NCBI RefSeq assembly: GCF_014646255.1
Contig: NZ_BMNC01000004.1
Span: forward strand, 178,480-202,479
From: Lentzea pudingi
GTDB taxonomy: Bacteria > Actinomycetota > Actinomycetes > Mycobacteriales > Pseudonocardiaceae
Direction of reading: 5' to 3'
DNA: 24,000 nucleotides
Shown: one piece after another, positions 11,216-18,033 of the stretch
Numbering within the stretch: position 1 is the first letter of the stretch
Layout of the letters: every line of letters begins with the position of its first letter
Translations under genes and position numbers: made by a program
The notes under the pieces: generated by a model
What the model saw: the letters and a program-made list of their open reading frames with translations, nothing else
What the model was told of the DNA's origin: nothing
The model's database searches: none

Positions 11216-13492
11216 TTACGGCAGTTGAACGCCGACGACGCAGGTGTCGTCGTCGGTGTTGGACTCGCCGTGTGCGAGCAGGTGGTCGAGCAGCTCGTCC
11301 AGGTTCGACGCCGGCGTTCGCGCTGCCTCGCACAGGTGGTCCAGGCAGTCGTCGAGCGGAACGTCCCTGCGCTCGACCAGGCCGTCGGTGTACAACAGCA
11401 GGGTGTCACCCGGTTCCAGCTGCAGCTGACCCTCCTCATAGGACGGTTCGGCGAGGGCGCCGAGCAGCACACCGCGCAGCATCGGCAGCAGTTCGGCGTC
11501 GCCGTCGCGGATCAGCACCGGCGGCAGGTGGCCCGCGCGGGCCCAGCGCAGGACGCGGGTGTGCGGATCGTAGAGGCCGCAGATCGCGGTCGCGATGATG
11601 TTGTCGCTGAGGTGGTGCGCCACGAGGTTGAGCCACGTGAGCAGTTGCGCGGGGCCGGCGCCGGTGGCGGCGAGCCCGCGCAGTGCGTTGCGCAGCACCA
11701 CCATGCCAGTCGCGCCCTTGATGCCGTGGCCGGTGATGTCACCGACCGACACGAGGATCTGCTTGGTGGGCAGGACGACGGCGTCGTACCAGTCGCCGCC
11801 GACGAGCTCCTCCTGCGCGGCGGGCCGGTACCGCACCGCCACGCGCAGTCCGAACGCGTCGATCGTGGGGTGTGTCGGCGGCATGATCACTTGCTGGAGC
11901 TGCAACGTGAGCGTGTTGCGCTCCAGGGATTCCTGCTCGGTGATCGCGAGCTGGTCCTGCGTCGCGGACAGCGCGACCTCGGTCCAGTGCTGGGCGGACA
12001 CGTCCTGGTACGCCCCGCGGACGGCGAGCAGTTCGCCCTGTGAGTCGAGCACGGGCTCGGCGATCACCCGCACGTGCCTGGTGACGCCGTCCGGGCGTTG
12101 CAGGCGGAACGCCGTCGACGCCTGCTGCCGGTCCCGCAGGACGTTGTGCACGAACCCGTTGAGCGAGAGGACGTCGTCGGGGTGGGCGTGTGCCGCGATC
12201 TCCGCCAGGGGCACCGGATCGGTGCCGGGTGCGAGCCCGTACAGGGCGTACAACTGGCTGTTCCACATGATCCTGCCGCTGTGACGTTCCTCCTCGAAAC
12301 CACCGACACGGCCGAGTCGCTGCGCGTGTTGCAACAGGTTCGCCAGACGGGCCGTCTCGTCCTGCGCCCTCCACACGACCAGGACCAGCGCACCGTGCCT
12401 GGTGATGCTCACACTGGCCGCGACCGTGAGCGGCACCTCGTCGATGAGCGCCGCGAGGGTCATGCGCTCGGCCCGGAACGATTCGCCGGTGGCGTGCACG
12501 TGCTCGATCTTGTCGAACAGGTTTCCTTCGGCCGAGGCCAGCGGGTAGGCCTCCAGCAGTGACTTGCCCGCGATCGCGGAGCGCGGCCTGCCGGCGAGGT
12601 CGACGAACCCGCGGTTCACGTGGTGCACCCGGAAGTCGGCGATCGTGCCGTCGGGCGAGATCTCCGGTCCGAGCACGAGAGCGGGGTCGAGCAGCCCGTC
12701 GGCGAGGTCGACGAGTTCGGACGGCGCCCGCGCGAGATTCGGTGCCGCGGTGCTGTCGAGGGTGGCGGCGCACAGCTGCGCCAGCGCTTCCACCTGTTTG
12801 TGCACGCTCAGGGACTGGGGCGCGAGCGGAGCAGGCCAGCAGATCTCCAGCACGCCGGCGATCCGCCCGCCGGTCCCGGCGGGGACGGCGACGCGGCCGG
12901 GCAGGCCCGGGCCGATCGACGGCAGGCCTGACTCGTCGAGGTCGACGATCCACACGGCGTCCCGCTCGACCAGCGCGCGGCGGGCGGGAGTCGACACACC
13001 GGGCGGGACGTAGTGCCAGCGGCTCGCCTCGCCCGGCTCGAACCCGGCGTGCCCGGCGAGCGTCAGCGACGCGTCGGAACCCGCTGACCAGATCGCCACC
13101 GCGCTCGCGCCCAGGGGTGCGAGCGCGTGGGTGAACAGGGACTGCGCGACGGCCTGCGTGTCATCGGCGCCCAACGCGCCGCTCTCCGCGGTCCGCAGCC
13201 GGACCGCGGTCGTTCTGCTCGGCTCGTCGGGCACCGCGGTGAGGGTGTCGCCGGACACCTCGTTGATGATCTCCACGGCGAGCGTGAGCTGTGTGATGCC
13301 TGCCTGCTCGGCGAGCAGCGCGAGCTGTTCGGCGGCCTGTGCCGGGCCGCAGCGCAGCCGTTCGACGAGCACGCCTTTGGCGAGTTCCACCAGCGCCCGG
13401 CCGTCCGCGGTGGCCCGCACCTCGTCCATCTCCCTGCTGAGCCGGTCGATCGTGCTCACGAGCCGGTTCACGGCAGGCTGACCGGCGGTCAC
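11216..13492 (-). CDS. ANTAR - GAF - PAS - PAS - PP2C/SpoIIE phosphatase multidomain protein
   Basis: Track ORF 11216..13519. The N-terminal ANTAR domain is 'VSTIDRLSREMDEVRATADGRALVELAKGVLVERLRCGPAQAAEQLALLAEQAGITQLTLAVEIINEV'. It is followed by a GAF-like region and two PAS-like regions ('LVLGPEISPDGTIADFRVHHVNRGFVDLAG', 'GRIMWNSQLYALYGL...FRLQRPDGVTRHVRVIAEPV'). The C-terminal PP2C reads 'VGGDWYDAVVL...VSVGDITGHGIKGATGMV', 'LLLYTDGLVE', 'DDDTCVVGVQL'. The preferred GTG at 13492 overlaps the upstream TGA (GTGA). Confidence 0.9.
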   Translation of the reverse strand: MTAGQPAVNRLVSTIDRLSREMDEVRATADGRALVELAKGVLVERLRCGPAQAAEQLALLAEQAGITQLTLAVEIINEVSGDTLTAVPDEPSRTTAVRLRTAESGALGADDTQAVAQSLFTHALAPLGASAVAIWSAGSDASLTLAGHAGFEPGEASRWHYVPPGVSTPARRALVERDAVWIVDLDESGLPSIGPGLPGRVAVPAGTGGRIAGVLEICWPAPLAPQSLSVHKQVEALAQLCAATLDSTAAPNLARAPSELVDLADGLLDPALVLGPEISPDGTIADFRVHHVNRGFVDLAGRPRSAIAGKSLLEAYPLASAEGNLFDKIEHVHATGESFRAERMTLAALIDEVPLTVAASVSITRHGALVLVVWRAQDETARLANLLQHAQRLGRVGGFEEERHSGRIMWNSQLYALYGLAPGTDPVPLAEIAAHAHPDDVLSLNGFVHNVLRDRQQASTAFRLQRPDGVTRHVRVIAEPVLDSQGELLAVRGAYQDVSAQHWTEVALSATQDQLAITEQESLERNTLTLQLQQVIMPPTHPTIDAFGLRVAVRYRPAAQEELVGGDWYDAVVLPTKQILVSVGDITGHGIKGATGMVVLRNALRGLAATGAGPAQLLTWLNLVAHHLSDNIIATAICGLYDPHTRVLRWARAGHLPPVLIRDGDAELLPMLRGVLLGALAEPSYEEGQLQLEPGDTLLLYTDGLVERRDVPLDDCLDHLCEAARTPASNLDELLDHLLAHGESNTDDDTCVVGVQLP

Positions 13493-16400: not shown

Positions 16401-18033
16401 CCTCGGTGCCGACCTCACGCGCCACACGCGTGACCTCGTCGGCGAACGCGGACAGCGTGTCGACCATCGTGTTGATCACCCCGGCCAGCGCGGCGACCTC
16501 GCCCTTGGCCTCGACGGTGATCTTCTGGCTGAGGTCACCACGGGCGACCGCGGTGGCCACCTGGGCGATGGACCGCACCTGGTTGGTCAGGTTGGTGGCC
16601 ATGACGTTGACGTTGTCGGTCAGGTGCTTCCAGGTGCCGGAGACGCCCCGCACGGTCGCCTGGCCGCCCAGGTTGCCCTCGGTGCCGACCTCGCGCGACA
16701 CGCGGGTGACCTCGTCGGCGAAGCCGGACAGCTGGTCGACCATCGTGTTGATGGTCTCCTTGAGCTCCAGGATCTCGCCGCGGGCGTCGACGCGGATCTT
16801 CTGGCTCAGGTCGCCGCGGGCCACCGCCGTCGTCACCTGGGCGATGGAACGCACCTGCGCGGTGAGGTTGTCCGCCATGACGTTGACGGACTCCGTCAGG
16901 TCCTTCCACGTGCCCGACACACCCTTGACGTCGGCCTGGCCGCCGAGGCGGCCGTCCGTGCCGACCTCTCGCGAGACGCGGGTGACCTCGTCGGCGAACG
17001 AGCTGAGCTGGTCCACCATCGTGTTGATCGTGTTCTTCAGCTCGAGGATCTCGCCGCGGGCGTTGACGGTGATCTTCTGCGACAGGTCACCACGGGCGAC
17101 CGCCGTGGCGACCTGGGCGATCGACCGCACCTGGGCGGTGAGGTTGCCCGCCATGAAGTTCACCGAGTCGGTCAGGTCGCGCCAGGTACCGGACACGCCC
17201 TTCACGTCGGCCTGCCCGCCCAGCGCGCCTTCGGTGCCGACCTCGCGGGAGACTCGGGTGACCTCGTCGGCGAACGAACCGAGCTGGTCGACCATCGTGT
17301 TGATGGTGTTCTTGAGCTCCAGGATCTCGCCGCGGGCGGTCACGGTGATCTTCTGGCTGAGGTCGCCCTGCGCGACGGCCGTCGTCACCTGGGCGATGTT
17401 GCGGACCTGGTCGGTCAGGTTGCCCGCCATGAAGTTCACGGAGTTCGTGAGGTCGAGCCACACACCGTCGACCCCGGGCACCTCGGCCTGCCCGCCGAGC
17501 TGCCCCTCGCTGCCGACCTCGCGTGCCACGCGGGTCACCTCGTCGGCGAACGAGCTGAGCTGGTCGACCATCGTGTTCACGGTGTTCTTGAGCTCGAGGA
17601 TCTCGCCGCGCGCGTCCACGTCGATCTTCTGGCTCAGGTCACCCCGCGCCACCGCCGTCGCGACCTGGGCGATGTCGCGGACCTGGCTCGTCAGGTTGCC
17701 CGCCATCGCGTTCACCGAGTCGGTGAGGTCCTTCCAGGTGCCCGACACGCCGGGCACCTCGGCCTGGCCGCCCAGGCGGCCGTCCGTGCCGACCTCCCGG
17801 GCGACACGGGTGACCTCGGAGGTGAACAGCGACAGCTGGTCCACCATGCCGTTGAAGACCGTCGCGATCTCACCGAGCAGCCCGTCCGAGTCGTCCGGGA
17901 GCTGGATGCCGAAGTCGCCGTCGCGCACCGCCGTGAGCCCGGCGAGCAGTTGCCGCAGCTCCGGCAGGTCCACTGCTCTTCGGGCGCTGTCCTGACCTTC
18001 GCCCTGCTCGGTCGACGTGGCCGTCCCGCTCAT
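13489..18033 (-). CDS. Soluble hybrid sensor histidine kinase: poly-HAMP array - GAF - coiled coil - HisKA - HATPase_c - pseudo-receiver - receiver
   Basis: Track ORF 13489..18108. The ATG at 18033 (MSGTATS...) is preceded by GGAGGAAG. There is no hydrophobic TM segment. It contains 7.5 tandem 92-aa HAMP-type repeats, a GAF domain ('[21 protein letters not shown]...VLGVIELAS') and a long heptad coiled coil. The H-box is '[16 protein letters not shown]', the N-box '[12 protein letters not shown]', G1 'VSDTGIGI' and G2 '[14 protein letters not shown]'. The C-terminal REC reads '[11 protein letters not shown]...[14 protein letters not shown]...IIAVTAKAM'. Confidence 0.93.
15895..17826 (-). repeat. 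Seven tandem in-frame 276-nt (92-aa) coding repeats with a 552-nt super-period (HAMP array of the kinase)
   Basis: Each unit has the form 'FA(D/A)EVTRV(A/S)REVG(T/S)(D/E)G.LGGQA.V.GVSGTW.DLT.(S/N)VN.MA.NLT.QVR.IAQV(A/T)TAVA(R/Q)[26 protein letters not shown]..'. Three off-frame shadow ORFs of identical length (124 aa) start exactly 552 nt apart (15983..16357, 16535..16909, 17087..17461). An N-terminal half unit extends the array to about 17961. Confidence 0.9.

Follow-up and report, generated by a model that had tools for sequence, protein, structure and literature searches.

Two families of soluble poly-HAMP proteins have been defined by Coles et al. 2026 (PMC13446029), and the kinase-associated one is the setting for the gene described here, a poly-HAMP hybrid histidine kinase gene on the minus strand of a 24,000-nucleotide stretch of Lentzea pudingi DNA (contig NZ_BMNC01000004.1, positions 178,480 to 202,479; hereafter the window). 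Kinase-associated arrays combine non-canonical group C HAMPs with canonical group D HAMPs, always begin with a special D1 HAMP, and precede a GAF domain, the DHp/CA kinase core and at least one receiver (PMC13446029). The family is widespread in bacteria, whose members are called "poorly characterized", and is found also in fungi (group III kinases) and Amoebozoa; it includes AskA and AskB of Myxococcus, OsaA of Streptomyces and the fungal group III kinases (PMC13446029). The arrays of fungi and Amoebozoa are treated as the same array type, possibly of one eukaryotic origin, and a junction Trp that makes an interdomain hydrogen bond in AskA is conserved in kinase arrays (PMC13446029). Myxobacterial kinases had already been termed group III-like by Marcos-Torres et al. 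2020 (PMC7643160). Such kinases matter in two respects: they are a test of how HAMP domains relay signals, and it is by targeting the fungal ones that phenylpyrrole and dicarboximide fungicides work.

We consider it highly likely that the Lentzea protein belongs to this published family as a soluble hybrid histidine kinase that is functional and presumably a dimer. It has a di-HAMP array with a divergent first HAMP and the junction Trp, the array stands ahead of GAF, DHp/CA and receiver, and the protein carries neither an upstream input domain nor a transmembrane helix. Its best match in the PDB is the 6-HAMP construct of Myxococcus xanthus AskA, 9trk (E 5e-87), to which the N-terminal 313 residues (six HAMPs, HAMP1 included) align; 9trj comes next (E 4e-41). 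Our homologue search gave at least 8000 scored candidates, all with E <= 1e-10, and the named matches within the top 120 belong to Acidobacteriota, Myxococcota and Actinomycetota, many of them 2100-2400 amino acids long. The gene and its parts are as follows.

13489..18033, minus strand: poly-HAMP hybrid histidine kinase gene, 1514 amino acids plus stop (open reading frame, Shine-Dalgarno sequence, orthologue starts, G+C at third codon positions (GC3), Pfam domains)
17971..18033, minus strand: N-terminal leader of 21 amino acids ahead of the first HAMP, hydrophilic, with no input domain and no transmembrane helix (translation, hydropathy); varies among Lentzea orthologues
15901..17970, minus strand: poly-HAMP array of 15 HAMPs, 8 canonical and 7 non-canonical in alternation, 46 amino acids each, 92-amino-acid di-HAMP period, no indels
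15412..15819, minus strand: GAF domain (PF13185, E 1.3e-21; PF01590, E 8.5e-13)
15154..15411, minus strand: coiled-coil signalling helix from GAF to DHp, about 90 amino acids, proline-free (heptad analysis)
14950..15153, minus strand: HisKA/DHp domain with H-box SHELRTP (PF00512, E 4.8e-20); His970 of the 1514-residue protein
14443..14808, minus strand: HATPase_c catalytic domain (PF02518, E 1.7e-28); N, G1, F and G2 boxes intact
13954..14340, minus strand: degenerate first receiver (pseudo-receiver); Glu1292 at the acceptor position, His for the conserved Thr, Leu for Lys, EE as the acidic pair and inserted residues in helix 1
13513..13851, minus strand: canonical C-terminal receiver (PF00072, E 2.7e-29); DDD, Asp1444, Thr and Lys present

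The reading frame itself is secure. The window has a G+C content of about 70%, and the kinase frame has a GC3 of 0.94, typical for a real gene in the Lentzea genome. The longest open reading frame across the kinase runs over 13489..18108 on the minus strand (1539 amino acids) and offers two in-frame ATG candidates, at 18108 and 18033. Because the ATG at 18033 lies 6 nt downstream of GGAGGAAG, and because the Lentzea orthologues (91-95% identical) begin with MSGT... and are 1490-1512 amino acids long, we accepted 18033, which gives the 1514-residue protein, and dropped 18108; this is also where an earlier note on this DNA, made from its letters, had placed the gene. Residue numbers from Pfam and the other tools run from 18108, so that 25 must be subtracted to reach the numbering of the 1514-residue protein. 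The earlier note had called the kinase soluble and had named an overlooked upstream in-frame start encoding a transmembrane segment as what would speak against that. The in-frame extension upstream is hydrophilic and is bounded by a stop codon just after the preceding gene. A Kyte-Doolittle scan of the kinase itself revealed no transmembrane helix: the highest 19-residue mean, 1.85, falls in a GAF strand bearing E, D and E, and this charged strand, the sole stretch above 1.6, was rejected as a candidate.

The array is the most distinctive part of the protein, and its description as 7.5 tandem 92-amino-acid HAMP repeats holds up by several routes. Tandem Repeats Finder reports a 276-nt period at 15911..17847 (7.0 copies, 78% matches, 0% indels), and the protein motifs F-A-x-EVTRV and G-T-W recur at exactly 92-residue spacing. 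Each 92-residue unit is a 46-residue canonical HAMP followed by a 46-residue non-canonical one, and the array both starts and ends with a canonical HAMP. The units match HAMP profiles, with seven stretches each for PF00672 (HAMP, E 1.7e-79) and PF18947 (HAMP_2, E 1.5e-61). The canonical half that opens the array is a divergent one, of the 'D1' kind, with 49-56% DNA identity to the other canonical halves, and the Trp of the GTW/GVW motif is kept in all seven non-canonical units. A two-unit super-period of 552 nt was rejected: adjacent units (distance 1) are on average 79.8% identical in DNA and units two apart (distance 2) 78.7%, and Tandem Repeats Finder gives only the 276-nt period. Other Pfam overlaps on the repeats (IcmF-related_N, PseudoU_synth_1, DUF1759 and CMD) were set aside as spurious, as no stretch passes alone.

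Comparison between genera shows the repeats to be conserved position by position. Against four seven-unit orthologues from other genera, each di-HAMP unit of the Lentzea kinase is 84-98% identical to the unit at its own position and only 51-89% identical to units at other positions; in 31 of 32 comparisons the best match is the one at its own position. By this positional fidelity, the array is old and each of its positions is individually constrained, which speaks for a function of array length and unit identity and against recent amplification as their origin. Many bacterial arrays have instead been noted as nearly identical and recently amplified. Where an orthologue carries fewer HAMPs, particular di-HAMP units from inside the array have been lost, whereas the first and last ones are always kept; L026 is without one unit near positions 2-3, and L030 is without two.

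Downstream of the array, the order proposed in the earlier note (GAF, long coiled coil, HisKA/HATPase, two receiver-like domains) is borne out by Pfam, by the heptad analysis and by comparisons of the receivers. In the numbering from 18108, the Pfam spans are 764-899 for GAF_2, 986-1053 for HisKA, 1101-1222 for HATPase_c and 1420-1532 for Response_reg. Residues 900-996, which take in the roughly 95 residues from GAF to the H-box, contain zero proline and show a clear heptad signal, with hydrophobic residues at the a/d positions at 0.57-0.59 against 0.26 elsewhere.

Of the two receiver-like domains, only the last is canonical. Against the Pfam receiver model, the stretch that separates the ATPase from the last receiver reaches 14.2 bits, under the cut-off; in the PDB it matches a solved receiver, 3c3m, at E 9e-4. 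Long family members have three Pfam-detected receivers, and the Lentzea segment is homologous to the penultimate (middle) one (BLAST down to 2e-12). That aligned receiver keeps the acidic pair, Asp, Thr and Lys, whereas the Lentzea acceptor region reads VVLE-LDMP. An AlphaFold2 single-sequence model of the receiver region shows two (beta-alpha)5 units at low confidence (pLDDT 59), and its best Foldseek matches are the REC-REC tandem of PleD. Degeneracy extends to all orthologues sampled from other Pseudonocardiaceae genera: in the aligned columns the Lys is lost in all and the canonical Thr is present in none, with the acceptor Asp retained in a few. Judged from these alignments, the first receiver is a pseudo-receiver, and an old one within the Pseudonocardiaceae clade.

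Among the characterized proteins, AskA (MXAN_0712) and AskB of M. xanthus share with the Lentzea kinase solubility, a divergent first HAMP, alternating 46-residue HAMPs, the junction Trp (GTW), GAF, DHp/CA and one or more receivers. AskB is stated to have 31 HAMPs against 15 in the Lentzea kinase, and the close long relatives have three Pfam receivers where Lentzea has one true and one degenerate receiver. The myxobacterial proteins belong to another phylum and to another gene neighbourhood, and no ambruticin or developmental link is known for the Lentzea kinase. Aer2, the soluble chemoreceptor of Pseudomonas aeruginosa and Vibrio, is another parallel. It too concatenates canonical and divergent HAMPs through which conformation zig-zags, but its HAMPs are few and dissimilar, are interrupted by a PAS-haem domain, lead to a methyl-accepting output and belong to the chemoreceptor groups A and B, in contrast to the kinase groups C and D of Lentzea. 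Pfam finds no PAS or MCPsignal domain in the Lentzea kinase, and the NCBIfam Aer2 model scores 199 bits on it against a cut-off of 1200.

In light of these comparisons, a poly-HAMP chain in a soluble bacterial kinase is not in itself a novelty: the family is widespread and described, the AskA crystal structures (9trk/9trj) are available, and OsaA has been studied. The Lentzea gene is no new kind of protein. It is instead a clean, moderately sized example, with 15 HAMPs whose units are individually conserved between genera. What the locus adds to the published picture is modest: a pseudo-receiver, a conserved operon that pairs the kinase with a PP2C phosphatase where the genome has no HPt, and positionally conserved repeats.

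In actinomycetes, the family member that has been studied is OsaA. The S. coelicolor protein (SCO5748) is cytosolic, 1829 amino acids long and has >10 HAMPs; it is encoded in an osmoadaptation locus in which OsaC acts on SigB. One could therefore take the Lentzea kinase for the orthologue of Streptomyces OsaA, the osmosensor of an OsaA/OsaB/OsaC system. We regard this identification as unlikely, although several observations speak for it. Both are actinomycete cytosolic hybrid kinases of one kinase-core clade, the Lentzea protein is 69% identical to a Streptomyces OsaA-type protein, and a multidomain PP2C regulator adjoins the Lentzea kinase as OsaC adjoins OsaA. In a FastTree phylogeny of the GAF-to-CA core, the joint clade that holds the Pseudonocardiaceae proteins, the osaABC-syntenic Streptomyces and Nonomuraea proteins and a second Lentzea paralogue has a support of 1.0. 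Within it, however, the window protein falls in a Pseudonocardiaceae clade of its own (support 0.997-1.0), which favours a paralogue or co-orthologue; the branching order inside the joint clade is weakly supported (0.68).

Gene order also separates the two. The Streptomyces/Nonomuraea locus reads osaC (RsbW-like-PAS-GAF-PP2C), osaA, osaB (receiver), ftsK, a rodZ-like gene and miaB, and this osaC-osaA-osaB-ftsK synteny, with rodZ and miaB, is absent from the window. No OsaB-like receiver/coiled-coil gene adjoins the kinase here; as for a possible OsaB partner elsewhere in the genome, there was no convincing orthologue, the best match being 31% identical and located away from the kinase. In Lentzea the adjoining phosphatase begins with ANTAR and two PAS domains, as against the RsbW-like HATPase_c_2 domain, PAS and GAF of OsaC. 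Finally, the Lentzea kinase retains a pseudo-receiver where a linker stands in the OsaA type. The Lentzea kinase is thus a co-orthologue or paralogue of OsaA and not the syntenic osaA.

As a member of the kinase-associated family, the Lentzea kinase may be expected to work by a mechanism whose steps we draw from the AskA structures and the HAMP literature. The protein would be a dimer in which the 15 HAMPs stack as one continuous four-helix rod, along which a conformational change, either axial helix rotation or altered bundle stability, would be handed from unit to unit. A non-canonical HAMP would reverse the sense of rotation and a canonical HAMP restore it, such that each di-HAMP reverses and then restores the signal; the signal inversion that the earlier note read from the alternating HAMPs agrees with the published model for such arrays (PMC13446029). 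The array, probably with the GAF domain, would be the cytoplasmic input, and a change anywhere within it or at the N-terminus could be carried on to GAF and the long signalling helix, setting the balance of kinase and phosphatase states. The coiled coil of about 90 residues would set the DHp/CA state, His970 would be autophosphorylated, and the phosphoryl group would pass to Asp1444 of the terminal receiver. This receiver is the most likely end point, predicted to act as an intramolecular regulator or docking surface and not as the first step of a relay, while the pseudo-receiver may serve as an adaptor.

The output is best considered together with the gene that directly follows the kinase.

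11216..13492, minus strand: ANTAR-PAS-PAS-PP2C (SpoIIE) phosphatase gene, directly downstream of the kinase (Pfam); its GTG start overlaps the kinase TGA (GTGA)

This PP2C gene lies directly downstream of the kinase in six of eight orthologous loci from other genera, with 57-79% identity. No HPt domain (PF01627) was matched in the Lentzea genome, which is 100% complete, while a control search matched 9 of 14 reference genomes; a review of S. coelicolor likewise notes no HPt for OsaA. A relay of the fungal type, from hybrid kinase through HPt to response regulator, is unlikely since no HPt was detected in a complete genome. The window also holds three RsbW-like modules, four STAS modules and one further PP2C. 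An island of partner-switching genes spans window positions 4133-9851, and consists of the following genes.

4133-4618, plus strand: RsbW-like
4692-5162, plus strand: STAS
5151-7115, minus strand: PAS-PP2C-RsbW-STAS fusion
7125-8699, minus strand: STAS-GT4 glycosyltransferase fusion
8781-9251, plus strand: STAS
9324-9851, plus strand: RsbW-like

Given the lack of an HPt, the GTGA overlap, the pairing in six of eight loci and the RsbW, STAS and PP2C genes of the window, the most likely output is one through the coupled phosphatase: the ANTAR-PAS-PAS-PP2C protein would probably carry the signal into the STAS/RsbW partner-switching stress network of the region. This would parallel OsaA-OsaC-SigB in Streptomyces. 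Together, the conserved PP2C operon and the lack of HPt make a concrete and testable proposal of how the actinomycete branch signals onward. That osmotic or another stress is the signal, as the earlier note had supposed from the neighbouring ANTAR and PP2C proteins, is suggested only by analogy with OsaA and the fungal kinases.

Several points weigh against this picture of the output. Two of the eight orthologous loci are without the PP2C gene, and the link between kinase and phosphatase comes from gene order alone. A search with a Pfam profile could miss an unrecognised HPt-like protein or direct His-to-Asp transfer to an orphan response regulator. The deletion of osaA in S. coelicolor has only a minor osmotic phenotype, which makes for a weak functional prediction even by analogy, and our literature search returned no experiment on the Lentzea kinase or a close orthologue. 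The structural view of the receivers, in turn, comes from a model of low confidence.

A bolder version of output through the phosphatase, to which we give only a slim chance, concerns one Pseudonocardiaceae clade. Here a kinase without an HPt partner and with a dead first receiver would be hard-wired by translational coupling to ANTAR-PAS-PAS-PP2C, and the terminal receiver would directly control either the phosphatase or the ANTAR RNA-binding domain. If true, this would be a new junction of two-component signalling, partner-switching and antitermination, and a tractable bacterial read-out of poly-HAMP signalling.

The fungal group III kinases (Nik1/Os-1/CaNik1p/TcsC), to which the earlier note likened the Lentzea kinase, suggest a different kind of output. 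In fungi the HPt protein Ypd1 carries the signal of these kinases on to Ssk1 and the HOG mitogen-activated protein kinase (MAPK) pathway, and the Nik1-type kinases are not known to have a GAF domain or a pseudo-receiver. By literature descriptions, on which this comparison rests, they share with the Lentzea kinase the absence of a transmembrane helix, an N-terminal array of 92-residue HAMP pairs and the order HisKA-HATPase-REC. CaNik1p of Candida has a di-HAMP pair length of 92 residues and 9 HAMPs, and fungal proteins have 9-12 HAMPs in five to six repeats of about 92 residues (PMC3848655). The resemblance is right in these respects, yet it is already in print, and we see nothing in the Lentzea kinase that falls outside the published family.

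Taken further, the likeness would make the Lentzea protein the head of a Nik1/Os-1-like multistep phosphorelay, in which an HPt protein would link the hybrid kinase with a response regulator in control of a stress pathway. The common soluble layout, the 92-residue di-HAMP period and the occurrence of kinase-type arrays in fungi and Amoebozoa all lend themselves to this idea, but no HPt for the Ypd1 step was detected in the complete Lentzea genome, bacteria are without a MAPK cascade, and GAF and pseudo-receiver are features of the bacterial branch. We hold such a relay to be very improbable. Least probable of all, with next to no chance in our estimation, is that the array, in place of relaying signals as a rod, binds DNA or serves as a scaffold, the role proposed in Myxococcus for AskB. 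Binding to promoter DNA has been reported in vitro for AskA and AskB, but the partial HTH_6 and SpoIIID Pfam overlaps of the Myxococcus argument are not reported for the Lentzea kinase or its Lentzea orthologues, such overlaps are sub-threshold with no stretch passing alone and fall on repetitive HAMP sequence, and the leader before HAMP1 is short and not basic.

The wider neighbourhood is less constant than the kinase-phosphatase pair. Upstream of the kinase lies a second ANTAR gene.

18165..18953, minus strand: GAF-ANTAR gene, upstream of the kinase and co-directional with it (Pfam)

Seven of the eight orthologous loci lack it, and the remaining one has a weak match (35%). A CorA gene lies beyond the PP2C gene, downstream of the kinase, and neither CorA nor the GAF-ANTAR gene is conserved as a partner in the orthologous loci examined (n=8). 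The ANTAR and PP2C neighbours to which the earlier note had drawn attention are both present, but conservation alongside the kinase is limited to the PP2C gene. Rfam gave no RNA element anywhere in the window, the folding of the 131-nt leader that separates the GAF-ANTAR gene from the kinase is no better than that of shuffled sequences (z -1.07), and no terminator was seen on the kinase gene's strand; on these grounds, we find no evidence for an ANTAR-type attenuator before the kinase.

The phosphatase has an architecture of its own. Its ANTAR domain (PF03861, 35 bits, above the cut-off) stands at the N-terminus and is followed by two PAS domains and the SpoIIE/PP2C domain; the whole protein, N-terminus included, is conserved in the orthologous loci of other genera. 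ANTAR is usually a C-terminal, RNA-binding output domain, and the N-terminal placement looks unusual. Further upstream and co-directional with the GAF-ANTAR gene, at 19315-22074 on the minus strand, is a regulator of the AfsR type with SARP (BTAD and Trans_reg_C), NB-ARC and TPR parts, which was not found at the orthologous loci that we examined. Sigma factors are represented in the window by a single gene, as far as seen, of the extracytoplasmic function (ECF) type, at 2443-2997 on the minus strand.

The kinase has matches in 32 of 60 other sampled genomes of the Pseudonocardiaceae; about 15 matches, in about 13 of those 60 genomes, are full-length with the pseudo-receiver included. The second intact paralogue of the Lentzea genome (L004 8039-12184, plus strand, or G000:C9:188038-192183) encodes 1381 amino acids and is 80% identical in the array. 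By Pfam it has 8 HAMP and 8 HAMP_2 stretches, GAF, kinase, a single receiver and no pseudo-receiver; it is flanked divergently by a gene for a 461-residue PP2C, and two STAS genes follow, so that a poly-HAMP kinase stands beside partner-switching genes a second time in this genome. An open reading frame of 234 amino acids (L003 1381-2085, minus strand, on G000:C3 at about 528.5 kb) looks like the collapsed remnant of a third copy, with nearly everything between the two ends deleted: the leader and first HAMP are joined to a portion of one non-canonical HAMP, a fragment of the pseudo-receiver and the tail HRWMRAR.

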